This document shows positions 2,894-27,753 of a stretch of DNA of 64,000 nt, one piece after another; position 1 is the first letter of the stretch; each line of letters opens with the position of its first letter. The position numbers were made by a program, and so were the translations under genes. The stretch lies in NCBI GenBank assembly GCA_000091205.1, contig AP006502.2. The stretch is one strand, 5' to 3'. This stretch comes from Cyanidioschyzon merolae (Eukaryota). The notes under the pieces were generated by a model. The model had not been told where the DNA came from and ran no database searches. It saw only the letters and a list, made by a program, of their open reading frames with translations.

Positions 2894-3829
2894 ATGGTTC
2901 ACAGGGACCCCGCTGAAGAGCTATGGTGTGAGCTGTGGCAGCCTGGCGTAGACATCACGAGGAAAATGAACGCTATTTTCGGTTTAAAGGAGATCGGTAC
3001 GGAGCGTGCCGTGACGCTGCTCTGCGCAGCGTTACTGGACGCCCGGGAGCGGTCAGTTCTCGTGCGTCACGAAATTGCGTACGTACTCGGCCAGATCCAA
3101 AGTGCAGCTTCTATAAAAACGCTCACTGATAGGTTAATCGATACTGATGAGAACTCAATTGTCCGCCACGAGTGTGGGGAAGCGCTCGGTGCCGTTCGGG
3201 CTTTCGCGGTGCGACCTATCCTGCAGAAACTGTGTGGCGACGCGGTACCCGAAGTTCGCGAGACGTGCGTCCTGGCGCTTGAGCGGTTACGCTGGCTTGA
3301 AGAAAAGTCCACGAACGAGGAGCGCGTGCGAGAAACCTCGGCGAAAGCGTTCAAGCTCTTCGAAACGGTCGATCCAGCGCCGGCTTTTGTTGCACCCGAC
3401 GACCTAGAGGCATCCTGGTCCAACGCTGAGCTCGGTGAACTGCTCTTGAATGAAAACGAACCATTATTTCGAAGGTATCGGGCGCTGTTTACGCTACGTG
3501 ATCGCAATACGGACGATACGGCCGGGGTGATTGCGGCAGCGCTTCGACGGGACACATCGAGTGCCCTGTTCCGGCACGAGGTGGCGTATGTGCTGGGCCA
3601 GATGAGTCGTGCCTGCACGTTACCAGCGTTGGAGTCTGCTCTGGCTGACACACACGAACACGCCATGGTGCGACACGAAGCAGCGGAGGCCATTGGTGCG
3701 ATAGGTAACTCAAGTGCATGCGATATATTGCGGAGATTTCTGCGAGATGCGAATGTCATCGTTCGAGAGAGCTGTCAGGTGGCTCTAGATATAGCTGGAA
3801 TCTCTGACGACTGCCAGTTCATGGACTAG
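2894..3829 (+). CDS. DOHH: Deoxyhypusine hydroxylase (HEAT-repeat, His-Glu diiron motifs)
   Basis: 311 aa. Four HE motifs in the characteristic two-lobed layout (RHEIAYVLGQ, RHECGEALGA, RHEVAYVLGQ, RHEAAEAIGA), as in eukaryotic DOHH. Confidence 0.85.
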   Translation: MVHRDPAEELWCELWQPGVDITRKMNAIFGLKEIGTERAVTLLCAALLDARERSVLVRHEIAYVLGQIQSAASIKTLTDRLIDTDENSIVRHECGEALGAVRAFAVRPILQKLCGDAVPEVRETCVLALERLRWLEEKSTNEERVRETSAKAFKLFETVDPAPAFVAPDDLEASWSNAELGELLLNENEPLFRRYRALFTLRDRNTDDTAGVIAAALRRDTSSALFRHEVAYVLGQMSRACTLPALESALADTHEHAMVRHEAAEAIGAIGNSSACDILRRFLRDANVIVRESCQVALDIAGISDDCQFMD

Positions 3830-5378
3830 ATCATCAGAATTTTTCATATCCGTATCGTGTGCTTGGGCGAGTTGCAATACTCAAGTGTGGCAGCCAACAC
3901 GAACAGGAAATCGCTCTCCGGTACCGAATGGTCTCATGAGCTGCATCGTATTGTCTGTTGATGAGTTGATTGCATTGTCGTGCAGGGAACCTCAGGAGCG
4001 GCTATGGTGATCGGGAATCCCGTTTCAGGCTGGCACCGCTGGACCGAACAAGAATGCACCGTAATCCCTGGATACACAGAGGCGCACTGAACCCATCCAT
4101 GTGAAGCAGGCATGGTGTGAGGCTCCTTCGCAATAAATGGACGCCGCTTGCACCTTGTATGAGGTGCGAATTGTTTGTAGACAATTCGTCGGGAACGTGC
4201 TGATATTCAAGATATCGATGCTGGTGGGTAATTCCGGCAGCAGTGCGCAACTGCGCGCCGAGTCCTTCGAGTGTACTTGCATCCAGTATGGCTTCGCCGC
4301 ATGCCGGCCTCTAAGCCGTGCGAGCAGGGCTTACTCCTTTGCTTTTATCTGTGACAGCCAACACGAGAAGCATACTCGAGTTAGCGCCAACCGATCGTAC
4401 GGGTTCTGAATGTAACCGAGGCACCCAGCAGGCGTGTCGGAACTCTTGTGGATGCATATGCTGGACCGGCGTTCCAGAGCGAACGATTCGAGAAATGGGG
4501 CACTGTTTCGGACTTGTGGGCGCGAGGTCAAGGGCGGCGTAGGTGCGTTCGCAAACGCCGAAGTTGCACGATGCCCCGTTATCGAGGTTTTGTCGATACG
4601 ATTGGGGAGTAAACTCCTGGGTCGATTTTAGCATTCGGTGGCGTCTAGAACGTTCGTTTGGCCCGGATATCGATATGCACGAACTCTCCTGAACGAATGG
4701 CCGGGTCATGTTTAGACACACTCAGTAATATCGAATAATGCAACACCATTCTCGATTGGCAGTCGCCCAGGGATACCATTCCGACTACATAAATACGATG
4801 TTGCAGACTTGTTGTATTCCTGACCATACCATACTACTGAATTGCTCCAGGCGAGAATCAGATGCCGCCTCTCTAATGTCCTTGAATTCGTTTATCAAAG
4901 GTCGTCAGCGATTCAGGGCAATGCCCACGGCCTGTACGCAACGATCCGCTCCGGGGTCCGTTCGATGCAGAGCTCATGCGCGTTTCGCTAGCAGAGGCCA
5001 TCTCCGAACGTTGTTCGACAGACGCTCATATCTCGATCCATAAAGGGCCGTCACACGCTTCGACAGGTAAACGCACACAACTGCATGCCGCTCGCTCTCG
5101 TTGCTCGCTGCATCGGACGTTATCTCAGCGTACCGTGCAACATCTCGAGCGTCCGGCTCTGTTTCACGCTCTTCTCCTCTACCGGCATCAGCGCGCAACC
5201 GTGCTCTTGATTTCTGCATATTGTCCTGCATCCATCGATAAGCATCGGAAAGAATCGATTCCTTCGCTCGTTGCACGCTCTCGTAGATGCAGCAGGAATG
5301 CAGCCCGAGCGCGTTCCAGCGCCTCGAGCGGCAGTGCGCTGCCACCGAACAGCACGACGCATCATGCACTATCGGGTT

Positions 5379-5421
5379 GATGTTCATGTTCATGTTCATG
5401 TTCATGTTCATGTTCATGTTC
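5379..5421. repeat. (ATGTTC)n hexanucleotide microsatellite, ~7 units (3 units in duplicate copy at ~18008-18026)
   Basis: Direct reading: atgttcatgttcatgttcatgttc... Unit number differs between the two duplication copies. Confidence 0.9.
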
Positions 5422-6885
5422 AAGTCCATGTCCTTGATCAAGTCCTTGAGCGTGTCCACGTCCATGTCCATTTCATGGAAACCGTTGGCCAGTCTGCGCT
5501 TCTTGCCTCCGTGCAGCCGGAGCATCGGCGAGTCCGGTGCGGCTCCATCTAGTGCCTCCATAGATTGTCTGCATGAGCCATTTGGACGCTCATGTGCTCC
5601 GTGAATGCGGCGTTCAGAGAATACCTCAGACCGCTGGATTCGGCGCTCAGAGCGTCAACATGGGTCACGACGCTGTCCTTGCACTCGCTGGTAGACCGCT
5701 GGGCGCCCGCCATGTCGGGCTCCCGTTCATGCCCTTCCCTGCACAAGCTGCGCAGTTGCATTTGCTCGCCCTGAGGATCTCCGGATACATCCCCTCGATG
5801 TAGAGATACTGCATCTGAGATGACGGTTTCCAGCTGCGGATCCGGGTCCGCCGCAATGTTCGTCTCGTCGTCTACCCTGACAGGTTGAAAAAGCTGCTCG
5901 TCGGCTGACGCTGGCCTCGGTTTCATGGAGTCTGTGTTTGTGTGTGTGTGTGTGCGTATGTGTGCAGACGGACAGTCCGTCGGTGCATCGTCCCTGTGCA
6001 TTTCGTCTTGTTTCCTTCGTGTGACAGAGAAACCTTGAACGAGCCTCTGCTCTGCTCTGCTCTGCTCTGCTTGAGGCTGCTCGAGCGATACGTCGCTGCT
6101 CGAAGAGATACCAGACCCTCTTCGCTATCCGCTTCACTGGGATGCCCGGTCATGGTCTGGTTGCTATGCTCTACGTCTGTTTTCCTCCTTGAGAAGCACA
6201 CGGACTGGATGGGCACTGTTACTAAGACTCGCCTTCTCTGTGTATGTATCGGCGCTCTCTCGGACACGTTTTCGTTACCTTCTTGAACGCGAGCGTGTCC
6301 ACGCACTGAAACGTGCCCCTGCGCTCCCTCCTGTGCAAGAGACGCGGCCCAACACGGTAGTTCAGGGCTGGTGGAGGTATCGCAAGCGTCGTCGAAAAAC
6401 TCGAGTGTTACGGACGTGACTGACGCACCACTAGATCCGTGAGCGTCAGAGCGGCTTTTGCCAACAGAAAAGACGCTTTCGACTGGAATGGACCAACGGA
6501 GAGTAGACTGGCAGGAAGCGCAGCTCTACGCAGTCTCAGCTGCATACTCGGTGACTGCTTCTTGTTGTGACGGGAACCGACGTTTTCTAGCAGCAGGACA
6601 GAAGAGCTTGGGAACGAGGTTCCGTGAGCACTTCTTAGAAGATTGAGGTTTTTGAAGGATCCGGGCTGTTCAGCGATCTCGGGGCGACCAGACGTGTTAC
6701 CCGCCGCTAGCTAGGACTGTTGTTGCCGTCGCGCTCGCTTGTCTTGGCTGAACGAACTGCGAATCGCCCCTCTTTAACTACCCGTGCGCAAGTCTACGCG
6801 TTCTCACGAACAAAGTCGCATCGAGTGAGACATGCAGCAGTCTGTCCCACGGTAAGCGATCCCTGAACAATACAAAAGCAAAGCT

Positions 6886-6906
6886 GAGCTGAGCTGAGCT
6901 GTCCGA
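6886..6906. repeat. (GAGCT)n microsatellite (expanded to ~11 units at 19488-19546 in copy B); (GT)n at 5934-5960 and (GCTCT)n at 6040-6076 nearby
   Basis: Direct reading of gagctgagctgagctgagctg. Copy B carries a longer array with one variant unit (gagctaagctg). Confidence 0.85.
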
Positions 6907-7339
6907 CACAGGATACGTTCCGGTGGCATCGCGCTTTCTCCCGCGTCCATTGGTGGCCCTTCACCGCTCTTCGTATCATGGGTACGGAAGTTTCAGAAAC
7001 TGTGGCTTTGCCAGTAGAGCTTCATAGCGAACGCTTGGAGACGAATGGAATGACGAGACGACGGTCGTGGAGATCGAGGTCCATAGGTTGCACGTCGGGT
7101 GCACCATGTCCAGACCGAGGACTAGGCAGCGAATGGCCCGTGCATCTGCCCACCGAAGAATGCCTGAATACTACACCTAAGATCCTCTGTCGCATGCTAC
7201 CAGAGACATCATAAAGTCGTCCCGCAACGCTCTTCCAACATGCTGGATACAGTCCATTAGTTGAGTGCCTGCGAGAAAAACAGAGGACGACGATGAAAAC
7301 GGCGTGCTGGTACAGGAGCTCCAGAATGCACTGCTCTGT

Positions 7340-10300
7340 TTATAGGCTCTCGATAGATGCCAAGTACTGGTGTGGGGAGAGCACGCTTGTACCGCCAATT
7401 ACCACGTCAATCTGCAGATGTGTAGCGAGTCCTCGTATCTGCTCCACTTCAAGAGCGGTGACTCCACCAAGTACCACGAACAGGAAGCGATCGTTTCGGT
7501 AACGTTCAGCGGCTCGCTGGAGACGATCCACCAACGCTGCATGCACTCCAGCGTCCTCGGGCAATGTTTCAGTCGCATCTTGCTGCTGCTGCTGCAGTGC
7601 CTCTGTGCCGTCTAAGGCTTCACAAACAGTCGCTTGTGATCGCACGTTCCTTTGTGCACTAGATGGGGGACTTGACGGCGACAGCGCCTCTGCCAGCATG
7701 CCTGCTTCTTCAGCGATACGCAACCTGCTGCGACGTGCACTGCGTTTGACGTCGACATCTGGCGTCGCCCGGTCGACTTGCTGAACGACTCGTGGAGTCG
7801 TTTGCGTGTCGGCTGCCGTTCGCTGTTCGTCGCTTTGATTACATGTTGTCCCTGGACTGTGCATCATATGCGCGTCCTCAGAATGAATACCTTTGCGGGT
7901 GTTCTGGCTGGGCATGGCGTCCAGTTGCATACCGACAGCAGCATCGTGCGTCATATCATGTCCCTGGGTTGCAGGCGTCGTCGTCGTCGTCATCGTCGTC
8001 GTCGCAGCGAGCGGAGCTGTCACGTGAGGCTCGGGCGCTGGCGACGGCGCTCGCGGCTCCACGAGCAACGTAGACAAGAAGAGTTCCGCAGCCGGTGACC
8101 CCAGCGGCTCCTTGTGTTCATGGTCGGACGCAACAGCGCTGTCGTCGTGCCCTTCAGCGACTTCATGTCGTTGTTGAAGATCGAATGCGCCCATATACTG
8201 GAGCAAAATTTGGCTCGCCATCGTCTCCGGTAACAGTAGCGATCCAAGTGACTCGTGTACCAGCACTCGAGCTCGCCGTCTCCGTCGCACGCGGGCGGAG
8301 CGCGTTGCCCACTTGGCGGCACGAAGGCGTTGAAGAAACGCATTCGCCGTTCGTATCAGCGAGTCTTGCGTCTGCAGGTCCAGTCCCGGAATTTTCTGGA
8401 CCAGTTCCCTGACAAGATGTGGGTCCCGGCATCCAAGGAACACCAGCAGTAAGCGCAGCTTGTCGGAGAGCGCATACGTGTCCGCTTCGAGAACCTTTTC
8501 CACGGTACGGCGCATCGTAGCGGAACTGATTCGTGACCCTTGATCCTGCTTGATACCCATGACGATGCACCTTTCCAACGCCGATAAATAGAGTAGATTT
8601 CGTTGTTGCTGTTCTTGGAGACAACGCTCCAGGCTCTTTGCATGCCAGCGCAAAGCGGAAAGCAACTCCAACTGCGCCGGGTCCGCTGCTTGGAGGCTCT
8701 CAAGCGCTCGCTTCAGCGAGGCAAGATCCAGGTCGATACATTCCGCATGAGTCACGCGGTTATCTGAGTCAGGCTCGCTGGATGCGAGGAGCGGCTGCGC
8801 GAGCGCCTGCAGTTTCGCCACAGCGTCCGATAGCGTGTACTGTCGCAGCGCTCGCCAGACCGCATCGTGCTCGGAAGGCCACTGCGGTCGGGCGTTTCCC
8901 GCTGCATCATTCAGTTCCAGAAGCATGCCGCGGTAGGTGTTCACGTGTAGCAGAGGCGTAACGGGGTCCACGGCACGATCCATGAGCAGGAGGTGCAGGG
9001 CACCGCGCCCTGCCACCAAACCTGGACAGAACAGCGGCAAGAGATGCACCGCTGCATACGTCTGAGCCGCCCTGGCAATGCAGGTCGCTTGTTCACTAGC
9101 CGCAGGAGAGGTATGAATCTGAATCCAGGGGGCTTCATTCGCAAAGGTGCCTGCACCCATGCCGTGCAGTAGGGTGCCGATCTGGTGACCGAGTTCCTCC
9201 ATGAGCTGGAACCGCATGGCGCAGGTCTCGGGAGCATCTGCACCGTACAAGAGACCAAATACGTCTTCCCGATTCTCGATACTTACCACTTGTTCCTCGA
9301 TCGGGAAAAAGTCCACATGAATGGGTAGTAAGACGGTGCTTCCGTCAACGTCCGCCCAGGAAATGGCGTGGCGGCGGGGCAGCGGTGCGCTCGGCGAACG
9401 CGTCAACAAGAGCCGCACCGGCACTGGAGCGCTTCGCTTAGCCTCATAGCGCGCCACACTGGTCATCCAGTCGCCCGTTGGAGCCAGAATATAGATTGTT
9501 GGGAGCTCTAGTTCCCGATTTCCGCAACGAGGAAGCTGCTCCAGGAGACATATCCGTGCTGAAGGGAAGCATTCGGCCAAGTTTGGTCCCAGGGCATATT
9601 TCAGGAGCACTGCAGTGCGGGCGTCGAGAACAAGAAGCCAATCTCTTTGCCCAAAGTGCTCCACTTGATCGTGGACAAGGGCGACCAGGAGACGCTGCAC
9701 TCGCTGGACGATGCTGAAAGGTTTTTGAGAATCGTCTATCGACCCGAAGCTCGGCAAACTGAGCATCAAAGGCGACAGGCTGTCCATGGACAGGATCCCC
9801 CCCGGAATACCCCAGCGCGGCTCATTCGCTGCCTCAGACCCGAGACTCGTCGGGCTGAGCGTGCCCTTCTCCGCTGCATCAGCTGCTTGAAATCCGTAGG
9901 CAGCCCCGAAATGCGCTTTTTTCTCGAAGCCAGCTCGTCGCTGCCGTCGTCTGCGCAGAAGGCACCATACCAACAATACACCGAATACCAGAGCGAGTAC
10001 GATCAGCACCGCCACAATGGCAGCTACGGCACCTGTACTGATGCCTTGAGCGGGACCCGCGGTCACAGCGTTGGCCTCGTTTGGATCCTGGACATCAACC
10101 GCGAGCACGTTGTCCGCGCCACAAGATACGGGTCCGAGCGCCGTCAAGTTACTCAAATGGCCCCTGCATACAAAGCGATTCAACGCTGTTTGCCAAGCAT
10201 CTAAAGCACTTGCGCTGATGACGCCCGCATAAGTGGCGATCACTGATCCAGCACGCAGATCGACCAGCACCAGCGGCGGGTCCGACAGAAGCGCTTCGCG

Positions 10301-11371
10301 TATATCCGGATTTCGCAATAGCGCTTCCGTGATATTTTGACTCACGCCAGTGGTAAATTTGCTCAGCATTAATCCCGTAAAATTCAACGGGAAGACTACC
10401 CGACGCGATGATTCTCCCCGGAAGGCAGGGAGTGGCGCGATAGTTGCCTGAGCGCTCCGCACGCCGCTGGCGATCGGGAACGGTAGCGGTGTCGGCACCG
10501 AGTCGCTCCCAGCGCTTTTAGCCGTCACCAGCACATTCGCGTATCGAATACCGGGGCAACGGGCATTGTAGAGGGCCCAGGTACCGCTGGAGAACGTGTT
10601 GTCACTCGTCTCAACAGAGAGCTCTCCGTTAATGAACACTTGAAGGCGGGCGTGATCGCAGCGCACGTGCAGCTCGACAAAGTCTCCGAGCGGGTACGGC
10701 TGCGCGTGCGCCGCTGTCGCAATCGTGTTCCAGCTCCCGTTCGCGACAACCTGCAGCTGCTGAATAGCGCCGCTGGCACGAACTCCCGGCTCTTCCGTGT
10801 TACTCCACACGAAGCGGTAATAGTTATTCGAGTCCTGAATGCGAAACATGACTCCGGCCAGTCCGTTAACTGCGGCATTGATCGCAACATAGATATCGTA
10901 GTTGGTGAGGGTCTCAGAGCCGGCCCCGATGTACTGGAGAAACGTGCCTGCATAGGGGTCGGCGGCGCTATTTGGCGAGAAAATGTTCTTGGTCTGCTCG
11001 AGCACCGCACCGCTCTCGTAACGCATCCCGTTCGCATCCACGTCGGTTTCAATCCAGAAGGAGGGCGCCCCAATCGAGCCCTGGTCCACTGGCTTCCACA
11101 CGCTCGTGTCTATTGGACATATTGGCGCTGTGCAGGAAGAGAAGTCCGTTCCGAAAATGACACCAGACTCGCTCACTCGAAACTTGCTCCAGTCGGGTGA
11201 AGCGCCCCTGACTGATTCGGAAACGCCCAAAAGCGCCAGCACCAGAACAAGCGCGCAGAGCCAGCGGTACCGCCGGGGCCACGGACGCCAGCGCGCACCC
11301 GAGAGCAGCGCGGCAACCGATGCGAACATCCACCACGTCCTGTGACGACTCAGTATAAAACCTGTGCCCAA
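7340..11371 (-). CDS. Sec1/Munc18 (SM) family vesicle-fusion protein with an N-terminal signal peptide, ~400-aa ectodomain and a transmembrane segment in the same ORF
   Basis: 1343-aa uninterrupted ORF. The C-terminal ~800 aa carry SM-family hallmarks (LLVLDARTAVLLKYALG near the domain start; LLLMDRAVDPVTPLLHVNTYRGML matching the LLxxDRxxDxxTPLLHxxTYQ core; C-terminal VVIGGTSVLS ~ IIGGTT motif). The N-terminal part has a hydrophobic signal-like segment (LCALVLVLALLGVSESVRG) and a TM helix (AAIVAVLIVLALVFGVLLVWCLL followed by RRRRQRR). A low-complexity Thr-rich insertion lies inside the SM domain. Confidence 0.7.
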   Translation of the reverse strand: MGTGFILSRHRTWWMFASVAALLSGARWRPWPRRYRWLCALVLVLALLGVSESVRGASPDWSKFRVSESGVIFGTDFSSCTAPICPIDTSVWKPVDQGSIGAPSFWIETDVDANGMRYESGAVLEQTKNIFSPNSAADPYAGTFLQYIGAGSETLTNYDIYVAINAAVNGLAGVMFRIQDSNNYYRFVWSNTEEPGVRASGAIQQLQVVANGSWNTIATAAHAQPYPLGDFVELHVRCDHARLQVFINGELSVETSDNTFSSGTWALYNARCPGIRYANVLVTAKSAGSDSVPTPLPFPIASGVRSAQATIAPLPAFRGESSRRVVFPLNFTGLMLSKFTTGVSQNITEALLRNPDIREALLSDPPLVLVDLRAGSVIATYAGVISASALDAWQTALNRFVCRGHLSNLTALGPVSCGADNVLAVDVQDPNEANAVTAGPAQGISTGAVAAIVAVLIVLALVFGVLLVWCLLRRRRQRRAGFEKKAHFGAAYGFQAADAAEKGTLSPTSLGSEAANEPRWGIPGGILSMDSLSPLMLSLPSFGSIDDSQKPFSIVQRVQRLLVALVHDQVEHFGQRDWLLVLDARTAVLLKYALGPNLAECFPSARICLLEQLPRCGNRELELPTIYILAPTGDWMTSVARYEAKRSAPVPVRLLLTRSPSAPLPRRHAISWADVDGSTVLLPIHVDFFPIEEQVVSIENREDVFGLLYGADAPETCAMRFQLMEELGHQIGTLLHGMGAGTFANEAPWIQIHTSPAASEQATCIARAAQTYAAVHLLPLFCPGLVAGRGALHLLLMDRAVDPVTPLLHVNTYRGMLLELNDAAGNARPQWPSEHDAVWRALRQYTLSDAVAKLQALAQPLLASSEPDSDNRVTHAECIDLDLASLKRALESLQAADPAQLELLSALRWHAKSLERCLQEQQQRNLLYLSALERCIVMGIKQDQGSRISSATMRRTVEKVLEADTYALSDKLRLLLVFLGCRDPHLVRELVQKIPGLDLQTQDSLIRTANAFLQRLRAAKWATRSARVRRRRRARVLVHESLGSLLLPETMASQILLQYMGAFDLQQRHEVAEGHDDSAVASDHEHKEPLGSPAAELFLSTLLVEPRAPSPAPEPHVTAPLAATTTMTTTTTPATQGHDMTHDAAVGMQLDAMPSQNTRKGIHSEDAHMMHSPGTTCNQSDEQRTAADTQTTPRVVQQVDRATPDVDVKRSARRSRLRIAEEAGMLAEALSPSSPPSSAQRNVRSQATVCEALDGTEALQQQQQDATETLPEDAGVHAALVDRLQRAAERYRNDRFLFVVLGGVTALEVEQIRGLATHLQIDVVIGGTSVLSPHQYLASIESL

Positions 11372-13237
11372 CCCTGCGCGTAAAACTCAATGAAAACAAA
11401 GCGCGTGATACCTGGAAGCGCAAGGCGGATCGCAGAACAGAAATCTCTGTTCATTGTAGGAGAAATAGGCATTCGATCGATCCGAGTATGGACGCGTGGC
11501 CTGGGGAGCAAACAGCGCCGGCTGGTGGCGCCTCGAGGGCCGGTGGCGGCACGTGCCGCTTCCGCGCACAGGGCGGCGCTTTTGTTGTGGCCCGGACCTA
11601 GCGGGGAAGCCGACGGAGATGGTTCATATTTGTCTATTAATGAATAAGAATATGAAGCGGCAGCAGGGCAATCGAGGTCTCCGCGCTCTTGCGCGTACCC
11701 CGCTGGACAGGAAAATGCGTACGCGCGCGCGGCTCGCATCCGATGATCGACACCTGTGATCGATACACATGCGATACTGAACTGCTCGTGCTATCCCTGC
11801 GTTGTGACTTGTCGCAAATTGCAGCGTTAAACGGACAACCTAGAGATCAAAAGTGCATGCATAGGAGATTACGGGTGCATATATAGGTATACGATTTTTG
11901 ATCGATTTTGTTCGGAGTGGGTTCTTCGAAGCTTTTGCGCCTGGGATTCGTTACGTTCCCAGAAACAAGATGACTGGGGGCGGCGCCCACAAATAATGAT
12001 TGGGAAAATAACCAATGTCGCGATGCAGCGTATGCGTCCAAGTCTCCGCTATTCTTCTATCGTTACATGTATCATGTTCAAATCACGTATTCTTCGTGGT
12101 TTCGATCGCACTGTTCTGAAGCGAGTCGTGCACGCAGTAATGCACGTCGCCGGATTGGCCACGAAACCAGAGCTCAACGTCGACTCTCGAAGGCGTTTTT
12201 CACATCGAATCATTTGTCTCGTTCGAAACACAAATCCGCCTCTGTTTCGAGGCATCGACCAATCGGCATTCGCCTGGAGCATAATACCTGTCACGGGATA
12301 TGCTCGCAAGGGCCCCTGTCTCTTCTCTTTGCATTCAAAAAAGGGTACTGGACACGAGCTCCAGTTATCGCAACGATCACTTCCCGTGGACCATAAGCGG
12401 ATGGAAAACTCTCGATCTCTCCTCTAACCTGGATTCCGCTTCCGAAACGTGTTCCATCATGACCAAGATCGCGTTTCATAAATCCCGTCTCGAATGGAAC
12501 ACTGCGCGCTTGCGCTCGCGGAGGATACCCTATTTACTGCGTGAATCGCACAGAAAAAACATGTGATCATGCGATACGACGATGTGTGCGAAAATGCAGG
12601 ACGGTACCGAAAGAAGCCTTCCGTAGTGTCCAGGTACATGCGGCAATCGATGAAGCAAGCGTTCAAGCTGCACTAGCCGCCGATAAAAGAGAGGGCACTT
12701 GTTGCGATGGACATCTGGGACGCCTGACCGCTGCCAAGTGTCACTGCTGCGAGGGACGAACCGAGGTCGCGTTCGAAGAACGTGCGTAGATCACAACTTT
12801 TGCCGGTGCATGAATCGCGTGAACAACACCCAGAAGCAGCGAAATCGGCGACTTGGACGCTACGATCAATACCCCTTGACCGGCATTAACAGAGCTGAAC
12901 AGACAGGAGAGATCGACGTAATCTGAGCCTGAGACCATACGGAGGTAAGGCAGGCAGTCGGAGACGAATCCCTCAAAGACTTTTGTTCATGACTGTGGGA
13001 AGCATCCCAAACTTGAGAATGTACGCTCGAGTTAGACCAGTGGACCTGCACCTTTCGATTCTGATATCGCGAGATGCTCGGTCGAGCAAAGAAGCAGACG
13101 TCGACCGGGGGCTGGCGGGTACATCTATTCAGCCAATCCCAGACGCCTTCCAGCCTTTATTAGGCCGGCCGACTGCTAACGGTTTCAGTTTATCCGGGCA
13201 CACTTCGAACCTCAGAGGCAAACCCCACGAAGCTGGA

Positions 13238-13576
13238 TTACGTCAGGCCGTCGTGTCTCGTCTTCAGCACCACACAGCGTCTGATATTGATAGCAGCGTT
13301 GAAGCCCCGGGTCACGAACTCCATGCGTTTGTTGCCTCTGGTCGAACTCACAAGTGCAAGAATTGCTAGAACTCGTGCCCCATCAGAGCCACTACAGTCT
13401 CGACATTGTCCTGTCGGGCAAGCACCGTGTCCCGCACATCTCCGCTCTTCCTCGTCTTTTGCTTCTACATCACTTGCTCTTCTTCGCTCGATCGTCGGCG
13501 AGAAGAGGATTTTTCTGTTTCCTTTCCAGTACCCGGCGATCTCGGGCCCGCCAGGACCCCTGACTTGCACGTCCAT
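13238..13576 (-). pseudogene. Degenerate Fanzor/TnpB-like nuclease remnant (C-terminal zinc-finger and RuvC-III segment only)
   Basis: ORF ends ...CAGHGACPTGQCRDC..VLAILALVSSTRGNKRMEFVTRGFNAAINIRRCVVLKTRHD. Clearly homologous to the C-terminus of the intact Fanzor-like ORF at 43056-44669 ([38 protein letters not shown]). No RuvC-I or RuvC-II region precedes it; the upstream part is replaced by a minisatellite. Confidence 0.55.
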
Positions 13577-13782
13577 ATCCGCCCCTTGGGTTTCTTACTT
13601 GTCCAAACGAGCACATGTCGAAAACGTCCAGCATAAACCGCAAAAAAAAGCACTTGACGCAACGCACCTGGAGATGGAACGCAATTCAGATGAAAGTCCA
13701 GAACGCACGCTGCGGCACCGGATCGCCGCAAGATCGCAGGCGCGCAGCGTGCACAGACGGCGCCTTTGCCGCTGAGGGTAGC

Positions 13783-14010
13783 GTCCGTCACGAGAAGCGG
13801 CCTGTGCGCGTCTGTCACGAGAAGCGGCCTGTGCGCGTCTGTCACGAGAAGCGGCCTGTGCGCGTCTGTCACGAGAAGCGGCCTGTGCGCGTCTGTCACG
13901 AGAAGCGGCCTGTGCGCGTCTGTCACGAGAAGCGGCCTGTGCGCGTCTGTCACGAGAAGCGGCCTGTGCGCGTCTGTCACGAGAAGCGGCCTGTGCGCGT
14001 CTGTCACAGC
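13783..14010. repeat. 27-bp minisatellite (gtcacgagaagcggcctgtgcgcgtct), ~8 tandem copies
   Basis: Perfect period-27 repeats starting at 13787, 13814, ... 13976. They produce artefactual repetitive ORFs in three frames (13465-14025, 13615-14130, 13766-14116). Confidence 0.9.
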
Positions 14011-14075
14011 TGGGAACGGCTGCACAGCAGTGCTTCGCGCTCACTTGGCTGTTCCAGGAAAGCACATCTGGGGCT

Positions 14076-14366
14076 ATGTCGACGTCAAGGTTGTGTACAA
14101 GTTTCCGAGCGATTAACGGCCGGGGCTTAGGGACTCTCGTTCCACGGCGAGGGCTGCACCAGACAACAGCGAGAAACCGAGCGACGCACGGCGAACACGA
14201 CGAACACCACGATGTGTACGGGTACCTGCACGCTCCGCACATGTACGACTTGAGTCACGCAAGCAAGTGGAAGTACGGCATTGCGACGTTTACATTTGTT
14301 ACAACAGGGCTGGGATTGCCTTTCTTCATGGTATGGTACTCGCAGAAAAAAGCCGGCATATGGTAA
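14076..14366 (+). CDS. Small mitochondrial single-TM protein, cytochrome c oxidase subunit 7C/Cox8-like
   Basis: 96 aa. Arg-rich presequence-like N-terminus, then KWKYGIATFTFVTTGLGLPFFMVWYSQKK, aligning with the COX7C KW-x16-PF-x-V-x6-K transmembrane signature. Assignment made from memory of COX7C only. Confidence 0.4.
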   Translation: MSTSRLCTSFRAINGRGLGTLVPRRGLHQTTARNRATHGEHDEHHDVYGYLHAPHMYDLSHASKWKYGIATFTFVTTGLGLPFFMVWYSQKKAGIW

Positions 14367-14471
14367 GACGGTTTCGATCAAGGTATTGTTGCTGGGGCTG
14401 TTGGCTGCTTCTTGAGGTTGGCGTCTCGTGTCCAACTTGTAAACACTACTTGTTTCTGAGTAACCCACGTT

Positions 14472-15128
14472 TTAGAGATACCGTTGGGGGAAGGAGAAAA
14501 TAGGTTCCATAAGAGAAGCAGCGCTCGGCAAACCAGACGCAGACGTGAGTACGTCGCGCACAAGCAGCGGCGGTTCAAGGCCCAGCGCCTGGGCACGTTC
14601 CCAGCGCTCGAGGCGACTGATACCTACACAAGGGCCGTATCGCACATCGAGGTCAAACATACGTAAAATATCTTCAGCATTTTCGTATCCCTCTGGACTT
14701 GCTGTCAAAGTGGAGGCACCGCCCCCGACTGTCGCTCCCTGCAATGTCGCTGTCGTCAGCGTTCTTGACGGCCTCGGAGCCTTCGTTGGCGTCTCCGGTG
14801 ATAACGTTCCTGACCTTGGTGCCGCCTCCTCAAACGTGCCAGGCTGGTGCGCTTTGTGTAACACGCGCACAGGTGTCGTCGAACCTGGTACGCTTCGTGC
14901 GGAAGCGGTCTGCGCGGCGCCAGACTTGGAAGCGCCACTTAAGGTCGATTTTCGACTCGTTGCTTCCATACGCAGCGTCTGTCTATCATGCTTTTGGTTT
15001 CGTGCGCTAGCCCTTGGAGAGCTGGCAGCTGCCGCGCCACCGGTCGCCTTCGAGACGCCCTCCGAAGTGACGTGCTGCTTGGCAGCGCGGGACCTGCCTC
15101 CTTGCCTCGTTCGCGTCGACACTGGCAT
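14472..15128 (-). CDS. POLD4: DNA polymerase delta subunit 4 (p12/Cdm1)-like protein with a long low-complexity N-terminal extension
   Basis: C-terminus ILRMFDLDVRYGPCVGISRLERWERAQALGLEPP matches the conserved POLD4 motif FDLxxxYGPCxGIxRLxRWxRAxxxGLEPP. The real start may be an internal Met. Confidence 0.5.
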   Translation of the reverse strand: MPVSTRTRQGGRSRAAKQHVTSEGVSKATGGAAAASSPRASARNQKHDRQTLRMEATSRKSTLSGASKSGAAQTASARSVPGSTTPVRVLHKAHQPGTFEEAAPRSGTLSPETPTKAPRPSRTLTTATLQGATVGGGASTLTASPEGYENAEDILRMFDLDVRYGPCVGISRLERWERAQALGLEPPLLVRDVLTSASGLPSAASLMEPIFSFPQRYL

Positions 15129-15449
15129 CTTCCGATAAAAACCTTAAAATAAATTCACCTGAGAACTTGTTTCCAGTACCAGACTATACCAAATCGAAGG
15201 TTTCATGAAACGCATTCCTCTGAGAAGCTCGCGATCGAACGACAGAGGAAGCGCTGCGGGCGATGTTGTGCTGCACGTCCGGCTGCGGCCGGTAACGCGC
15301 TGGCCGCCCGAACGACGACTTGTCGCGGTTCACGACGCTGTTCAACGCAGATTCGCGCTCTACACGGTACCAGCAACACGTAGTACAAGCAACACGACAC
15401 ACTGTCTTGGGAAGCACGCTTCCAAAAGCCTTGTGAACCGCTTAATTCA

Positions 15450-16196
15450 ATGGCGCTTCGCGTTCAGTTCGAGAACAATAACGATATCGGGTGTTTCGCC
15501 CGACTCACGAACGCTTACTGCCTGGTAGCCGTCGGCGGAAGTGAAGCGTTCTACTCGGCGTTCGAAGCGGAGCTTGCGGATCATATTCCTGTCATTCACG
15601 CTTCTGTCGCTGGTTGCCGCATCATCGGCCGGCTGTGCGTGGGTAATAAGCACGGCCTACTGCTTCCGAGCACCACGAACGATCAGGAGCTTCTACACAT
15701 CCGGAACTCGTTACCCGAGAGTATCGTAGTGCAGCGCGTCGAAGAGCGTTTATCTGCTCTGGGCAACTGCATCGCTTGTAACGACTACGCTGCGCTGGTG
15801 CATACGGACTTGGATCGTGAAACGGAGGAAATCATAGCGGATACTCTGCAGGTGGAGACGTTTCGTCAGACGCTTGCTGGCGAGGCGCTCGTTGGCAGTT
15901 ACTGTTACTTCACGAATCAAGGCGGCGTTGTTCACCCTATGTGTAGAGTGGAGGACCTAGATGAGCTCAGCGGCCTCTTGCAGGTCCCGCTGGTCGCAGG
16001 CACCGTCAACCGAGGCAGTGAAGTGATTGGAGCGGGGATCGTCGCCAACGACTGGCTCGGCTACTGCGGCTTTGCGACGACCGCAACAGAGCTATCTGTT
16101 GTGGAGAGCATTCTCAAGCTACGGACTTGGGCTGATAACAATGCATACGATTCGAGCGGTGCATTCAAGTCGGCGCTTATTGATGCCTTGGCTTGA
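15450..16196 (+). CDS. EIF6: Eukaryotic translation initiation factor 6 (eIF6)
   Basis: 248 aa, collinear with eIF6 throughout ([27 protein letters not shown]..., [81 protein letters not shown]). Confidence 0.92.
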
Positions 16197-17349
16197 GTTG
16201 CTCCTGCAGCGCACGCAGAGCATATTGGGATACTCGTGAAAGCCGGGGACACCTACGCCTCGAGTTGTCTGCAGAGCACTGATGGAACCGTCTGGGCTGG
16301 GAATTGGGCAAGTGCCCATCCAGATGCAATTTGAGGTGCACGAATGCATAGCTAGAAGGATGGCGTCCAAGCGGGTAGCTGCGCTCTCGTGCACCTCGTG
16401 TCTTTGCTTGAGGCGTAACACAAGCGCAGCGCCATCCTGGTATTCCGCGTCTGGGCTACATAGACAATGGTACTGGTGCGGCTCCGGTGTCATCGTTCGT
16501 GTGAAGCCTTTATGAGCAAGACAACGTAGACGCTGCAAGTTGCGTACGATGACTCGATGACAAATAGGCTCTACGCAGAGCACAGCACTCATCACGCTTG
16601 AGATGGTAGCGCTTCGGTGGCACTCCCGTGTGGTTGGCTAGAATACCAACAGCCTCTCAACAAAGATAGTCTGGGACAAGACGATGTCGGCAGCAGGACC
16701 TGTCAGAGGCGATCAGTACTCCCTATATCGTTTCTGGAACAAAGCTGTCGTGAGAGACGCATGATTTCACTGCATTGCACCACTGCTGAGTAATCGAGAT
16801 TTGTATGCATCCGTGCTTCCGGGATTGAACGTAACGCATTTCAAGTCGGTTGGTTGCGTAAGCAAGCAGGCGCTGCTGGCTACGGTGTGCTCGAAAGCGC
16901 GCGCACGTCCACGAGTGAACGTCATGGAAGCGTGCGAATGCGCTCCTCGATCATCTCTTCAACGCTTGCATGTCGCTCGTCTGCGCTTGTGCGGTGCTTT
17001 CCGTTCCGTCTTTCGATACCTTTCAAACTTGGCACCTGGGACTTGTTCAGTTTATGCCCATGACAGCCAAAGTGGATGCAGAGCAACATCGCTTGCGCTT
17101 CATGCTCGCCGGACGCAAACGCATTCGTTCCCACAGAAAACGTCACGCGCAAAACCCCGCTTGTTGGGCGGGCATGCGCAGCAAATCCGGGACCGCTGAC
17201 AAAGGTGTTGCCATTCCTGCTCATCATGGCGTTGTGCTGAGGTCTCGGCTCGTTTGGAGCCGTGTAGCTCATGTGGCTCCATAGCGCGCAAGTATGCACC
17301 GCAGCTTCGCCAGTTGAAATTCGGCAGCCACGTGTGTATTCTGCGAGAA

Positions 17350-20110
17350 ACTCAGTAATATCGAATAATGCAACACCATTCTCGATTGGCAGTCGCCCAG
17401 GGATACCATTCCGACTACATAAATACGATGTTGCAGACTTGTTGTATTCCTGACCATACCATACTACTGAATTGCTCCAGGCGAGAATCAGATGCCGCCT
17501 CTCTAATGTCCTTGAATTCGTTTATCAAAGGTCGTCAGCGATTCAGGGCAATGCCCACGGCCTGTACGCAACGATCCGCTCCGGGGTCCGTTCGATGCAG
17601 AGCTCATGCGCGTTTCGCTAGCAGAGGCCATCTCCGAACGTTGTTCGACAGACGCTCATATCTCGATCCATAAAGGGCCGTCACACGCTTCGACAGGTAA
17701 ACGCACACAACTGCATGCCGCTCGCTCTCGTTGCTCGCTGCATCGGACGTTATCTCAGCGTACCGTGCAACATCTCGAGCGTCCGGCTCTGTTTCACGCT
17801 CTTCTCCTCTACCGGCATCAGCGCGCAACCGTGCTCTTGATTTCTGCATATTGTCCTGCATCCATCGATAAGCATCGGAAAGAATCGATTCCTTCGCTCG
17901 TTGCACGCTCTCGTAGACGCAGCAGGAATGCAGCCCGAGCGCGTTCCAGCACCTCGAGCGGCAGTGCGCTGCCACCGAACAGCACGACGCATCATGCACT
18001 ATCGGGTTCATGTTCATGTTCATGTTCAAGTCCATGTCCTTGATCAAGTCCTTGAGCGTGTCCACGTCCATGTCCATTTCATGGAAACCGTTGGCCAGTC
18101 TGCGCTTCTTGCCTCCGTGCAGCCGGAGCATCGGCGAGTCCGGTGCGGCTCCATCTAGTGCCTCCATAGATTGTCTGCATGAGCCATTTGGACGCTCATG
18201 TGCTCCGTGAATGCGGCGTTCAGAGAATACCTCAGACCGCTGGATTCAGCGCTCAGAGCGTCAACATGGGTCACGACGCTGTCCTTGCACTCGCTGGTAG
18301 ACCGCTGGGCGCCCGCCATGTCGGGCTCCCGTTCATGCCCTTCCCTGCACAAGCTGCGCAGTTGCATTTGCTCGCCCTGAGGATCTCCGGATACATCCCC
18401 TCGATGTAGAGATACTGCATCTGAGATGACGGTTTCCAGCTGCGGATCCGGGTCCGCCGCAATGTCCGTCTCATCGTCTACCCTGACAGGTTCAAAAAGC
18501 TGCTCGTCGGCTGACGCTGGCCTCGGTTTCATGGAGTCTGTATTTGTGTGTGTGTGCGTGTGCGTATGTGTGCAGACGGACAGTCCGTCGGTGCATCGTC
18601 CCTGTGCATTTCGTCTTGTTTCCTTCGTGTGACAGAGAAACCTTGAACGAGCCTCTGCTCTGCTCTGCTCTGCTCTGCTTGAGGCTGCTCGAGCGATACG
18701 TCGCTGCTCGAAGAGATACCAGACCCTCTTCGCTATCCGCTTCACTTGGATGCCCGGTCATGGTCTGGTTGCTATGCTCTACGTCTGTTTTCCTCCTTGA
18801 GAAGCACACGGACTGGATGGGCACTGTTACTAAGACTCGCCTTCTCTGTGTATGTATCGACGCTCTCTCGGACACGTTTTCGTTACCTTCTTGAACGCGA
18901 GCGTGTCCACGCACTGAAACGTGCCCCTGCGCTCCCTCCTGTGCAAGAGACGCGGCCCAACACGGTAGTTCAGGGCTGGTGGAGGTATCGCAAGCGTCGT
19001 CGAAAAACTCGAGTGTTACGGACGTGACTGACGCACCGCTAGATCCGTGAGCGTCAGAGCGGCTTTTGACAACAGAAAAGACGCTTTCGACTGGAATGGA
19101 CCAAGGGAGAGTAGACTGGCAGGAAGCGCAGCTCTACGCAGTCTCAGCTGCATACTCGGTGACTGCTTCTTGTTGTGACGGGAACCGACGTTTTCTAGCA
19201 GCAGGACAGAAGAGCTTGGGAACGAGGTTCCATGAGCACTTCTCAGAAGATTGAGGTTTTTGAAGGATCCGGGCTGTTCAGCGATCTCGGGGCGACCAGA
19301 CGTGTTACCCGCCGCTAGCTAGGACTGTTGTTGCCGTCGCGCTCGCTTGTCTTGGCTGAACGAACTGCGAATCGCCCCTCTTTAACTACCCGTGCGCAAG
19401 TCTACGCGTTCTCACGAACAAAGTCGCATCGAGTGAGACATGCAGCAGTCTGTCCCACGGTAAGCGATCCCTGCACAATACAAATGCAAAGCTGAGCTGA
19501 GCTGAGCTGAGCTGAGCTGAGCTGAGCTAAGCTGAGCTGAGCTGTCCGACACAGGATACGTTCCGGTGGCATCGCGCTTTCTCCCGTGTCCATTGGTGGC
19601 CCTTCACCGCTCTTCGTATCATGGGTACGGAAGTTTCAGAAACTGTGGCTTCGACAGTAAAGCTTCATAGCGAACGCTTGGAGACGAATGGAACGACGAG
19701 ACGACGGTCGTGGAGATCGAGGTCCATAGGTTGCACGTCGGGTGCACCATGTCCAGACCGAGGACTAGGCAGCGAATGGCCCGTGCATCTGCCCACCGAA
19801 GAATGCCTGAATACTACACCTAAGATCCTCTGTCGCATGCTACCAGAGACATCACAAAGTCGTCCCGCAACGCTCTTCCAACATGCTGGATACAGTCCAT
19901 TAGTTGAGTGCCTGCGAGAAAAACAGAGGACGACGATGAAAACGGCGTGCTGGTACAGGAGCTCCAGAATGCACTGCTCTGTTTATAGGCTCTCGATAGA
20001 TGCCAAGTACTGGTGTGGGGCGAGCACGCTTGTACCGCCAATTACCACGTCAATCTGCAGATGTGTAGCGAGTCCTCGTATCAGCTCCACTTCAAGAGCG
20101 GTGACTCCAC
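17350..20110. repeat. Segmental duplication copy B (direct repeat of ~4725-7468)
   Basis: Same ORF translations as copy A, with microsatellite length differences: (ATGTTC) 3 vs 7 units, (GAGCT) ~11 vs 4 units, (GT)n variants. Ends inside a truncated copy of the Sec1 3' end. Confidence 0.85.
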
Positions 20111-20111
20111 C
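19983..20111 (-). pseudogene. Truncated duplicate of the Sec1/Munc18 gene 3' end (last ~42 codons) carried by duplication copy B
   Basis: ORF 19983-20231 ends WGGVTALEVELIRGLATHLQIDVVIGGTSVLAPHQYLASIESL. This is near-identical to the C-terminus of the 7340-11371 Sec1 ORF (...GGVTALEVEQIRGLATHLQIDVVIGGTSVLSPHQYLASIESL). The upstream part of that ORF is unrelated. Confidence 0.65.
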
Positions 20112-20490
20112 CCAGTAGCCCGGCCTTGCCCGTTCCACATGATCGACGATTCTCAGTCGATATATCCCTCCGATAAAGAGCGTGCCCTTGGCGACGCAAG
20201 AGTGCACTCGCCCGCACGCCGCACCAATCACAGAAATCGCTGCACGAAAAGCGCCGAGTACAAACTATATCGAATGCCAAGGAGTTCTTGTGCCGTAGTG
20301 GGCTCTCTTCGTTTGCGTGTTAGAGTTCTTGCAGCTTACCAAACACAGAAAGTAAGGAGGCGGACTGCCAGATTCACTCCAGGGTGCTTTTAGTGGCCGC
20401 TACTGCCGCTAAGCGCAGGTCGGGAGCGCAGCGCGCGGGCGAGGAACTCGTTTTGGAACGGGCGCGCCTAGTTGGTCGTCGCTTCAGCAA

Positions 20491-26502: not shown

Positions 26503-26814
26503 CTAGAGTGCGCCCCCGAGTCCCTGTAAGCGGAGGTTTCCGCGGAGGATCGCTAGACCCACGTCAGAATAGAATGGAACAAGTACATGAACACTGGCGT
26601 TCTTGCCAATGTTCTGCATACTCTTCCCACGTTTATCAACAGAAGCATTTGTGGCATTTATCTGCGACTGCTTCCTCGTACTTTCTTTGATCGCCGGCAG
26701 CAAATACGCCGTGTTCTGCTTTCTCTCACGCTTCATTGTCAGCAATTGGAGGGTGTTCATAGCGGCACTGAAGTCCCGGTAACGCTTTTGCGGGCTGATT
26801 TCGACAACATCCAT
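26503..26814 (-). CDS. Possible signal recognition particle SRP14-like protein (C-terminal part)
   Basis: MDVVEISPQKRYRDFSAAMNTLQLLTMKRERKQN resembles the SRP14 C-terminal region (…STVVSSKEVNKFQMAYSNLLRANMDGLKKRDKKNK). The N-terminal half is not recovered in frame; an intron or frameshift would be required. Confidence 0.25.
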   Translation of the reverse strand: MDVVEISPQKRYRDFSAAMNTLQLLTMKRERKQNTAYLLPAIKESTRKQSQINATNASVDKRGKSMQNIGKNASVHVLVPFYSDVGLAILRGNLRLQGLGGAL

Positions 26815-27753
26815 GTAGGCGAGGTTGTAGCGATCTCCGTATCGCTTGCCATTTTCATCTTCCTGCTAGATAACATCGACGCGCAATGCGTAGCGGTGAC
26901 ACGGGCATGTAAGGCCGGTATTCCCGAGTATCCACCACATATTCACCTCCGAAGGCCGGGCAATGACGCTTCAAGACTTGCCTCATTGTTCGGTGCGTGC
27001 GCCGAACGAGTGCAGAAGGCTTCCGCCGATGCCCTCTCGAGTTCGCATGGCGAGTGCAGTACCGCAGGATCACGGGCTTGTCATGGTCGATGCCCTGGAC
27101 AAATTCACCGTCTGCTGCGAGCGCTCCCGTACTCTGTTCCATTCGATCAAGAATCAGTGGAACGCGATGCTGTCCATGGTAGACCAGGTACAGGGAGAAA
27201 ACTCCAGACTAACGAACAAGCCGCGATCATTCGTTCTCTTAACACTCCTCTCCTGCAAATCGATGGTACTCCTCCCAGTGCGTTACGATCGCTGCGATGA
27301 CTCAGGTCCGAGCACGAGACTCTTTTCCATGGAAACCGAAGCAAGGGGAGCCTCTCGGAACACATCCCGTCACAGGTATCATGCTGCTGTGCAAAAGTCG
27401 TTTCATCGATCACCGTAAAACGATTCGGACTTGTGATTCGATTGCATTCGATGATTTGACGTGAAAAGTTGCGTGCACTTTCAGCGTGCGCACGTATGAA
27501 CTTGTCGTCAAAACACGAAATCGAGTTTTCGTTTCCGCGTCAGTCCAGCTGCGCGAATTGCCTCGCCAACGAGCTCAAACATAAAAATAGTCGAAATCTT
27601 GAAGAATGCATGATTGGAGGAGGCTGCATTTTGGGAAACGTAACGAGAGGACCCTTGTTCGTATGATCAGAATTATGATGTCGTCTATTTTACGAACGCT
27701 CGATCTGCTTGTATCCAGGTGATGTCCATCGATACGCCTTGCTTGTCCGATCG

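Follow-up and report, generated by a model that had tools for sequence, protein, structure and literature searches.

The window, a 64,000-nucleotide stretch of chromosome 20 of Cyanidioschyzon merolae 10D, carries two copies of a block in direct orientation, A at 4720-7468 and B at 17350-20111. Blastn of the window against itself, the comparison that the initial annotation had asked for as a dot-plot, and global alignment both bore out the proposed direct segmental duplication as real, while shifting its outer limits from 4725 and 20110 to 4720 and 20111. Positions 4720-6901 match 17350-19509 at 98.1% and 6882-7468 match 19525-20111 at 98.5%; self-blastn revealed no second pair comparable to A/B in the rest of the window. 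A repeat search agreed with blastn on a start-to-start spacing of 12606-12643. The global alignment of the two copies comprises 2701 matches, 24 substitutions (0.88%; 15 of the 24 are transitions) and 61 gap columns, all within three microsatellite indels. These indels map to an (ATGTTC)n array (7 units at 5376-5431 in A, 3 units at 18006-18037 in B), an (AGCTG)n array, equivalent to (GAGCT)n (4 units at 6882-6901 in A; 11 units, 7 of them perfect, at 19490-19544 in B), both recorded without strand, and a (GT)n array that differs by 2 bp. The copies had been described as differing in repeat arrays alone, which is correct for these three arrays but misses the 24 substitutions. A length difference had also been claimed for (GCTCT)n; in this genome the (GCTCT/CTCTG)n array has 5.4 copies in both A and B, and its length varies only among other strains. 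The flanks of copy B (16197-17349 and 20112-20499) are unique DNA. An Rfam scan (E ≤ 1) retrieved no RNA family in 3800-20600; the sole tRNA of the window is at 47749.

The right end of copy A reaches into CMT347C (BAM83303; 7340-11329, minus strand), a 1,329-aa Sec1-domain gene identified by an exact protein match and a Pfam Sec1 hit (E 2e-32), and the earlier claim that A ends within an intact Sec1 gene therefore stands. The stop codon of CMT347C, which reads TTA on the plus strand (7340-7342), is 5 bp from the transposable element that forms most of the block (see below). Since this element starts 5 bp after the stop, downstream and on the same strand, the Sec1 3′ UTR must lie within it. 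Identity between A and B overshoots the element end by 134 bp, to 7468/20111; the homology of other relatives ends at about 7334. The flank of A that was co-copied into B (7335-7468, minus strand) consists of the 5-bp spacer plus the end of CMT347C, namely its final 42 codons and the stop. Its counterpart in B (19978-20111, minus strand) translates to GGVTALEVELIRGLATHLQIDVVIGGTSVLAPHQYLASIESL*; these 42 codons and the stop differ from A by two amino acids (Q>L and S>A), which confirms the dead captured fragment noted initially.

Pfam identified Sec1, COX7C, DNA polymerase delta subunit 4 and eIF6 as the genes between A and B, as the initial annotation had them, and BLASTP to the intact Fanzor ORF of the window (E 1e-10) likewise substantiated a Fanzor remnant in this interval. 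Gene order across the region is kept in Cyanidiococcus and Cyanidium, both of which lack A and B. The DOHH-Sec1 spacer lacks the element in Cyanidiococcus (876 bp) and in Cyanidium (37 bp), and the eIF6-SNF2 spacer spans 4.3 kb in C. merolae versus 930 bp and 259 bp, respectively. Nhmmer searches with the block matched the Cyanidiococcus locus (L032) at the Sec1 3′ end only and returned no match in that of Cyanidium (L033). The outgroup loci thus show sites free of the element, and as they keep the gene order without either copy, both copies are insertions in the C. merolae lineage. Identity between A and B runs 134 bp into the Sec1 gene, which indicates that B was copied from A together with its flank. 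In the Cyanidiococcus orthologue, the Sec1 3′ end runs colinear with that at A (7339-7467 corresponds to 3455-3583 of L032), in agreement with the initial proposal that A is ancestral and B derived. The exclusion of an LTR element also held, because the 9.9 kb between the copies consists of host genes that are syntenic in Cyanidiococcus and Cyanidium. In addition, A and B end in ACTC..CACC rather than TG..CA and lack a target-site duplication, and LTR elements have not been reported in the C. merolae genome (PMC1955436).

Two low-complexity ORFs present in both copies (4974-5561 and 5549-6001 in A) had been put forward as a possible duplicated gene. Hmmsearch with a Fanzor1 profile uncovered instead a Fanzor1 ORF remnant at 5552-6124 (minus strand; profile positions 336-443; E 7e-12), which covers ORF 5549-6001, and a second one in another frame at 5123-5368 (minus strand; profile positions 486-546; E 2e-5), which sits within ORF 4974-5561 and recurs in B at 17753-17998. 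The B counterpart of the first remnant (18158-18757, minus strand; profile positions 313-443; E 2e-15) extends further than in A, an effect of the 2 bp by which the (GT)n arrays differ. Tblastn of P0263 (aa 384-640) onto 5887-5018 gave an E value of 1.6e-16. ORF 4974-5561 shows 2 synonymous versus 13 non-synonymous changes, and the SNP density of the block ORFs resembles that of intergenic DNA; control genes show a third-position SNP excess (e.g., 20 of 31 SNPs in Sec1). Homologue searches with ORF 4974-5561 retrieved orthologous ORFs on C. merolae-like metagenome contigs only, ORF 4738-5043 had no match among 1.84 billion representatives (full HMMER scan), and Pfam yielded nothing credible on the block ORFs. 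Neighboring genes match BAM83302-83307 exactly, and these accessions are consecutive, so no annotated 10D gene lies in A or B. A duplicated protein-coding gene was rejected for lack of purifying selection, outside homologues and an annotated product. By all these measures, the block ORFs are frame-broken, neutrally evolving Fanzor1 remnants, and neither copy encodes a working protein; these ORFs should not be annotated as genes.

Judging from its relatives, the body of the block (4720-7334, minus strand) is not anonymous DNA but a transposable element that is dispersed and has defined ends. In the Fanzor sense, this decayed Fanzor1-type element runs from 7334 (5′ end) to 4720 (3′ end). Element copy B (17350-19977, minus strand) is located in the eIF6-SNF2 spacer and shares 99.1% of aligned bases with A. 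A third copy elsewhere on chromosome 20 (L041:17833-20325, with limits also given as 17827-20327) is matched by nhmmer over the full length of the element (E 1e-123), is 56% identical to and colinear with the block, and adjoins the orthologue of a chromosome-20 gene. Within the window, an isolated 3′-terminal fragment of this element type was found at 55345-55681 (minus strand; nhmmer E 9e-10), the homology beginning at the first base of the block. A full-length relative at 42932-46274 (minus strand; nhmmer E 3e-17) retains an intact 537-aa Fanzor1 ORF (43056-44669), and its 5′-terminal 380 bp (45894-46274) are homologous to block positions 6953-7334. The left terminus is common to A, B, the L041 copy and the 55345 fragment, and the flanks upstream of it are unrelated. 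It reads ACTCAG, preceded by C, A, G or T depending on the copy, and its motif matches only 4722, 17352 and 55347. The right terminus, common to the block, the L041 copy and position 46274, reads CACTGC, CAGTGC or CACTGG and lacks a conserved hairpin. As they were set from copies that are 56-60% identical, these termini are good to about 5 bp only, and dispersion was judged on a small sample, the 64 kb of the window and about 63 kb from other loci. Several of the relatives found retain the 3′ end and vary in the position of the 5′ start.

Inverted repeats were not detected in 1-30000. The flanks of A, B, the L041 copy and the 42932-46274 element were compared for a target-site duplication and yielded a single match, the 6-bp TGTTTA flanking copy A, which is not significant (chance P ∼0.055). 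The Fanzor1 family profile matches the PDB Fanzor1 chains 9cf0, 8gkh and 9cer, whereas a PDB search with the Fanzor ORF as a single sequence gave no match. Plain blastn and tblastx picked up the family relationship of the element barely or not at all. A metagenome scan with a 40-mer from the left end of the block returned A and B contexts only, and the block is thus two-copy at near-identity, the family becoming visible only with nhmmer. A degenerate terminus motif was not found in viral contigs. Two further candidates were discarded: an apparent homology extending left of B (17175-17349 to 55174-55345) vanished with tiled queries and inspection, and a suspected 60-bp overlap of the element 5′ end with a neighboring repeat (46296-47693) did not hold up.

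The tract at 4720-5287 (17350-17917 in B; no strand assigned) has 0 substitutions in 568 bp, whereas all 24 fall in the other 2157 aligned bp (Poisson P = 0.0018). This reveals later, recent gene conversion between A and B and shows that ectopic gene conversion acts over 12.6 kb in the C. merolae genome. Collectively, we read the A/B unit as a decayed Fanzor1 element specific to the C. merolae lineage, with B copied from A along with its flank (probability of about 0.72). The non-coding element of about 2.6 kb, of a type devoid of terminal inverted repeats, sits 5 bp downstream of the CMT347C stop codon. The copied stretch has one limit within a few bases of the Fanzor-3′ terminus and, at the other terminus, overruns by 134 bp into the Sec1 coding sequence; it was deposited 9.9 kb away in the eIF6-SNF2 spacer. 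Afterwards, A and B drifted (0.88% substitutions and microsatellite slippage) and exchanged sequence by gene conversion. Against this reading, the element had already decayed when copied, as the two copies share the same broken frames and the nearest paralogue is only 56% identical, and its cis-acting ends may no longer have been functional by then. The lack of a target-site duplication, of poly(A) and of a known transposase also weighs against it. The most likely route, at about even odds, is an aberrant end-anchored mobilization that carried the flank along, either by one-ended DNA copying or by reverse transcription of a Sec1 read-through transcript.

Host break repair or template switching could have generated B as a plain segmental duplication whose left breakpoint fell at the element terminus by chance. 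This explanation, which we regard as unlikely but worth retaining, accommodates the right breakpoint in ordinary coding DNA, the unique flanks of B, the lack of a target-site duplication, terminal inverted repeat or poly(A) at B, and an element long dead before copying. However, 4720/17350 is within a few bases of the start of homology in two independent family members, and the chance of a random breakpoint in the 3.5-kb spacer falling there was estimated at well under 1%. Of similarly low probability is a special case of the end-anchored model, in which B is a 5′-truncated retrocopy of a Sec1 mRNA reading through the element. The Sec1 fragment and the element are on the same strand, with the element 5 bp past the stop codon, a compatible arrangement, and the relatives that keep the 3′ end but vary in their 5′ start fit this route as well. 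Moreover, non-LTR retrotransposons whose reverse transcriptase is intact occur in the genome, and these elements are transcribed (PMC1955436). Yet B lacks the marks of a processed retrocopy: there is no poly(A) or T-run at its Fanzor-3′ end (the sequence left of 17350 is ...TTCTGCGAGAA) and no target-site duplication. A 2.6-kb 3′ UTR would also be unusual for a compact genome, and Fanzor elements are regarded as DNA transposons (PMC3627910).

It is more doubtful that the element inserted independently at A and B and that ectopic gene conversion later homogenized the copies, repair synthesis having overrun the element end of A by 134 bp before joining the B flank. Such a sequence of events would account for an exact left and a ragged right boundary, and conversion is visible in the 568-bp tract. 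A-type and B-type alleles also form a mosaic pattern across strains, although the metagenome copies are mosaic or collapsed, which leaves a phylogeny of A-type against B-type sequences across strains uninformative. Nonetheless, outside that tract A and B differ evenly by about 1% throughout, the Sec1 fragment included, and nowhere does an older, more diverged segment survive. The B flanks hold no residual element sequence, and a rare type of element would have had to insert twice and then be converted along its full length. About equally doubtful is a broader reading of A/B as a rare fresh record of how the unclassified Fanzor1 elements of C. merolae, for which no transposase is known, copy themselves: with the Fanzor-3′ end as anchor, through the 5′ end, and with no target-site duplication left behind. 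On the same reading, the copies may drive amplification of a 12.6-kb cassette in the wild. Two contigs (L009 and L010) that join eIF6, the block and Sec1 hint at tandem amplification of this essential-gene cassette. These joins, together with the many short-read contigs that break at block edges, could also speak for an assembly artefact or a collapsed allelic variant, which is nevertheless highly improbable: 24 substitutions and three indels tell the copies apart, their four flanks are unique, 122-kb and 142-kb metagenome contigs reproduce the layout, and the source genome was reported as finished telomere to telomere (PMC1955436). All four A/B junctions recur on independent metagenome contigs, which makes an artefact unlikely and largely answers the concern raised initially. 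On one contig (Ga0078972_1000883) A and B are 100% identical; as metagenome copies may be collapsed, they back the layout and not the A/B divergence.

The model organism C. merolae has a genome that ranks among the simplest and least redundant of eukaryotes, and Fanzor1 elements are its main repeat family. To our knowledge, no transposase, class or insertion signature has been described for them. A 99%-identical pair with one exact end and 134 bp of donor flank at the other is a usable clue to how Fanzor1 elements are copied and, if the broader reading is true, would point to propagation by a route that no standard transposon class covers. Transposon sequence also makes up the 3′ UTR of CMT347C, an apparently essential gene of the Sec1 family.

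As in Fanzor1 elements, the block combines ORF remnants, dispersed copies with common termini and the absence of terminal inverted repeats or a clear target-site duplication. The closest described element is CMe-1A, an unclassified 3-kb element with about 150 copies and no terminal inverted repeats (Bao & Jurka 2013, PMC3627910). It is the "novel interspersed repetitive element" of Nozaki et al. (2007), who counted 253 interspersed 3.2-kb elements with a WSV486-like ORF in C. merolae (PMC3627910, PMC1955436). The block resembles CMe-1A in host genome, size (about 3 kb), dispersion, lack of terminal inverted repeats or a determinable target-site duplication, and position of the Fanzor1 ORF relative to the ends; its 5′-terminal 380 bp are homologous to the CMe-1A-type copy at 42932-46274 (roughly 60% by eye). 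In contrast, the 3′-terminal 340 bp differ from that copy, and the Fanzor remnant shares no more than 22-29% identity with the window Fanzor ORF and its paralogues, whereas these paralogues are mostly 63-80% identical to that ORF. Only the 5′ 380 bp and a weak ORF similarity are shared, and identity falls short of about 80% to CMe-1A, as compared with the window's CMe-1A-like copy rather than the Repbase consensus. The block thus appears to belong to a lineage of its own, related to CMe-1A but older and fully decayed, and we file it apart.

Dispersed repeats such as yeast Ty elements and subtelomeric repeats are held similar by ectopic gene conversion. The A/B conversion tract and the mixing of A- and B-type alleles among strains are alike, but conversion would explain the upkeep of A/B similarity and not the origin of B. 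Helitron-type capture was rejected, as 5′-TC, 3′-CTRR and a subterminal hairpin are missing and the ends are ACTCAG and CACTGC/CAGTGC/CACTGG; Helitrons insert between A and T, whereas here the base before the left end is C, A, G or T depending on the copy. Without poly(A), a target-site duplication or Helitron hallmarks at B, LINE-1, Helitron or IS91 mechanisms are not assignable. The outcome is nonetheless reminiscent of flank transduction by LINE-1 (5′ or 3′) and of Helitron/IS91 read-through: B has one element end, overshoots the other into the donor gene, and leaves a dead gene fragment at its new site.

Comparison of the window with itself returned two direct copies, A (4720-7468) and B (17350-20111), which blastn aligned in two segments (98.1% and 98.5% identical) separated by a microsatellite, in agreement with the direct duplication proposed in the initial annotation. 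In a global alignment, A and B agree at 2701 positions and differ by 24 substitutions (0.88%) and by three indels. One of these (24 bp) lies in (ATGTTC)n, with 7 units in A versus 3 in B, another (2 bp) in a (GT)n run, and the third (35 bp) in (AGCTG)n, with 4 versus 11 units. The reported array differences thus hold for these arrays but not for (GCTCT)n, which is the same in A and B of strain 10D and varies in length only among other strains. The end of A lies within a long ORF on the minus strand that encodes a Sec1 domain (Pfam, E 2e-32), and B carries the final 42 codons of this ORF, as had been noticed, and its stop codon, with two amino-acid replacements. The Cyanidiococcus orthologue aligns with the 3′ end of Sec1 at A, which identifies A as the original and B as its copy and upholds the polarity first assigned.

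Six ORFs of the window encode proteins identical to BAM83302 to BAM83307 of Cyanidioschyzon merolae 10D, which belong to a 1,621,617-bp record and are the products of the genes for deoxyhypusine hydroxylase (DOHH), CMT347C (Sec1-like), CMT349C, DNA polymerase delta subunit 4, eIF6, and an SNF2 helicase. These accession numbers run consecutively across A and B; neither copy therefore contains an annotated gene. The order DOHH, Sec1, DNA polymerase delta subunit 4, eIF6, SNF2, RabGAP is common to Cyanidiococcus yangmingshanensis and Cyanidium caldarium, with DOHH-Sec1 spacers of 876 and 37 bp, respectively (3.5 kb in C. merolae), and eIF6-SNF2 spacers of 930 and 259 bp (4.3 kb in C. merolae). 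Conservation of this order with short spacers indicates that A and B were both inserted in the C. merolae lineage. A single LTR-type element spanning A to B, already discounted initially, is ruled out because the genes in between are old residents, syntenic in both outgroups.

Some loci between the outer genes showed features of their own. CMT347C (7340-11329, minus strand) is one 1329-aa ORF with a C-terminal Sec1 domain and an N-terminal region combining a weak 3-keto-disaccharide hydrolase-like match with a hydrophobic stretch; its counterpart is one 1214-aa gene in Cyanidium, and the Cyanidiococcus annotation divides it into two genes, of 477 and 601 aa. A 96-aa COX7C-like ORF at 14076-14366 (plus strand; Pfam COX7C, E 5.9e-7) is 83% identical in DNA to a Cyanidiococcus locus (L032, 8381-8521) and near-invariant among strains. 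The protein collection lacks its exact sequence, and neither species has a gene call there; it is probably an unannotated gene. Directly upstream, 13781-14007 holds 8.4 copies of a 27-bp tandem repeat (99% identity) at which metagenome-contig alignments break, suggesting that copy number differs between strains.

Sensitive DNA comparison (nhmmer) revealed relatives of the repeat unit, hereafter the block (element body 4720-7334 in A). Among them are 45894-46274, homologous to the right end of the block (6953-7334; E 3e-17), and 55345-55681, homologous to its left end (4720-5060; E 9e-10). A metagenome contig (L041, 17827-20327) carries a full-length colinear copy that is 56% identical (E 1e-123); one of its flanks holds the orthologue of chromosome-20 gene BAM83178. 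On the left, homology begins at the same base as A/B identity, with the motif A(C/T)TC(A/G), and the upstream flanks of the copies are unrelated to one another. On the right, it stops at ~7334 (..TCCAG..CA(C/G)TG(C/G)), 5 bp short of the Sec1 stop codon, both termini being accurate to about 5 bp given how diverged the compared copies are. Rightward, A/B identity exceeds family homology by 134 bp, and B thus comprises both the element and these 134 bp of flank from A. L041 also carries, at 3481-5421, a cysteinyl-tRNA synthetase close to chromosome-20 orthologues; in 10D, the corresponding protein (BAM79775) is on a record of 739,753 bp. This points to a chimeric contig or to a rearrangement that distinguishes the strains.

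The family was identified through the full-length element at 42932-46274, which holds an intact 537-aa ORF (43056-44669, minus strand); paralogues of this ORF form more than 100 clusters in C. merolae-like contigs. A profile of this ORF and its homologues matches structures of Fanzor1, a TnpB-like protein family (9cf0, E 7e-22; 8gkh, E 2e-14; 9cer, E 9e-6), and 6 of 13 family members match a Cas12f1-like TNB domain. The same profile is found in broken frames on the minus strand of the block, at positions 313-443 (E 2e-15 in B, 7e-12 in A) and 486-546 (E 2e-5). The two low-complexity ORFs (4974-5561 and 5549-6001) offered initially as a possible duplicated gene are these Fanzor1 remnants. Variation in the block is intergenic-like (22 variable sites per kb among eight block copies, versus 18-29 in unique spacers and 3-17 in genes), and ORF 4974-5561 shows 2 synonymous versus 13 non-synonymous changes with no third-position excess, the control figures for SNPs at third positions being 20/31 in Sec1 and 6/6 in eIF6. 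Homologue searches with the block ORFs found nothing outside C. merolae, and the block matched no RNA family.

Other repeats populate the window. The intact Fanzor1 ORF contains a 75-bp in-frame tandem repeat (43907-44200) of acidic DEKEA..VQDND units, and CMT349C (13238-13576) corresponds to the remnant C terminus of an ORF of this type (BLASTP E 1e-10). A second interspersed family of ~1.4 kb, detectable only with nhmmer, has four copies in the 64 kb (11640-13081 and 46296-47693, plus strand; 26543-27776 and 55683-56362, minus strand); its ORFs have no Pfam match, and the copy after SNF2 occupies a spacer whose Cyanidiococcus counterpart measures 215 bp. Finally, 33430-33926 and 45189-45668, the latter within the 5′ part of the full-length Fanzor element, form a 75% identical pair that may represent the short TE-N2_CMe element of the literature.

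The first 568 bp of the block show zero A/B differences, versus 24 in the other 2157 aligned bp (P=0.0018), which we read as a recent gene-conversion tract; with conversion between the copies, the 0.88% divergence gives a minimum age only. B was found in all strains sampled. The element was already dead when B was copied. B's left boundary is the element's own end, and the other falls past the element, in the same-strand upstream gene. No significant target-site duplication, terminal inverted repeats, or poly(A) was found at B, and the DNA at its target site is unique. We favor, at a probability of roughly one half, a copying event that would have been anchored at the element end and taken the flank along, by a DNA or RNA route. 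A repair-made duplication would account for the same boundaries if one breakpoint fell at the element end by chance, which we consider unlikely. Two insertions made alike by gene conversion would have to include an overshoot into the flank, and this reading is more doubtful still.

That the pair is an assembly artefact is very improbable, since its layout recurs in independent metagenome assemblies of organisms ~99% identical to 10D, whose own genome is described as complete, telomere to telomere (PMC1955436). A 122-kb contig carries both A and B with all flanks, a 142-kb contig joins B to SNF2, and several further contigs join DOHH to A or eIF6 to B. Many short-read contigs end at the block edges, as expected of a genuine repeat. 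The two copies on the 122-kb contig show 100% identity, perhaps because the assembler passed through a single repeat node twice; metagenome copies were accordingly used for layout only. Two other contigs (L009, JGI 3300053675; L010, JGI 3300050369) join eIF6, the block, and Sec1, i.e., B's left flank and A's right flank; in L010, alleles are B-like in the left part and A-like in the right part. Either the assembler took a wrong path (a loop), or wild populations carry the 12.6-kb unit in tandemly amplified form.

Collectively, the feature and polarity of the initial annotation stand but its nature changes: rather than a duplicated gene or an anonymous segment, A and B form a young pair of transposon relics that includes captured flank. 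The pair is a fresh case of an already known type of event, of modest significance. In an earlier survey, interspersed elements bearing a WSV486-like ORF numbered 253 (PMC1955436), and CMe-1A, a 3-kb Fanzor1 element with ~150 copies in the C. merolae genome, was described as lacking terminal inverted repeats, with target-site duplications undetermined and class unknown (PMC3627910). The block shares its 5′ end and ORF with the CMe-1A type, but its 3′ end is unlike and its protein remnant far more diverged; we regard the block as an older lineage related to CMe-1A, not as CMe-1A itself.
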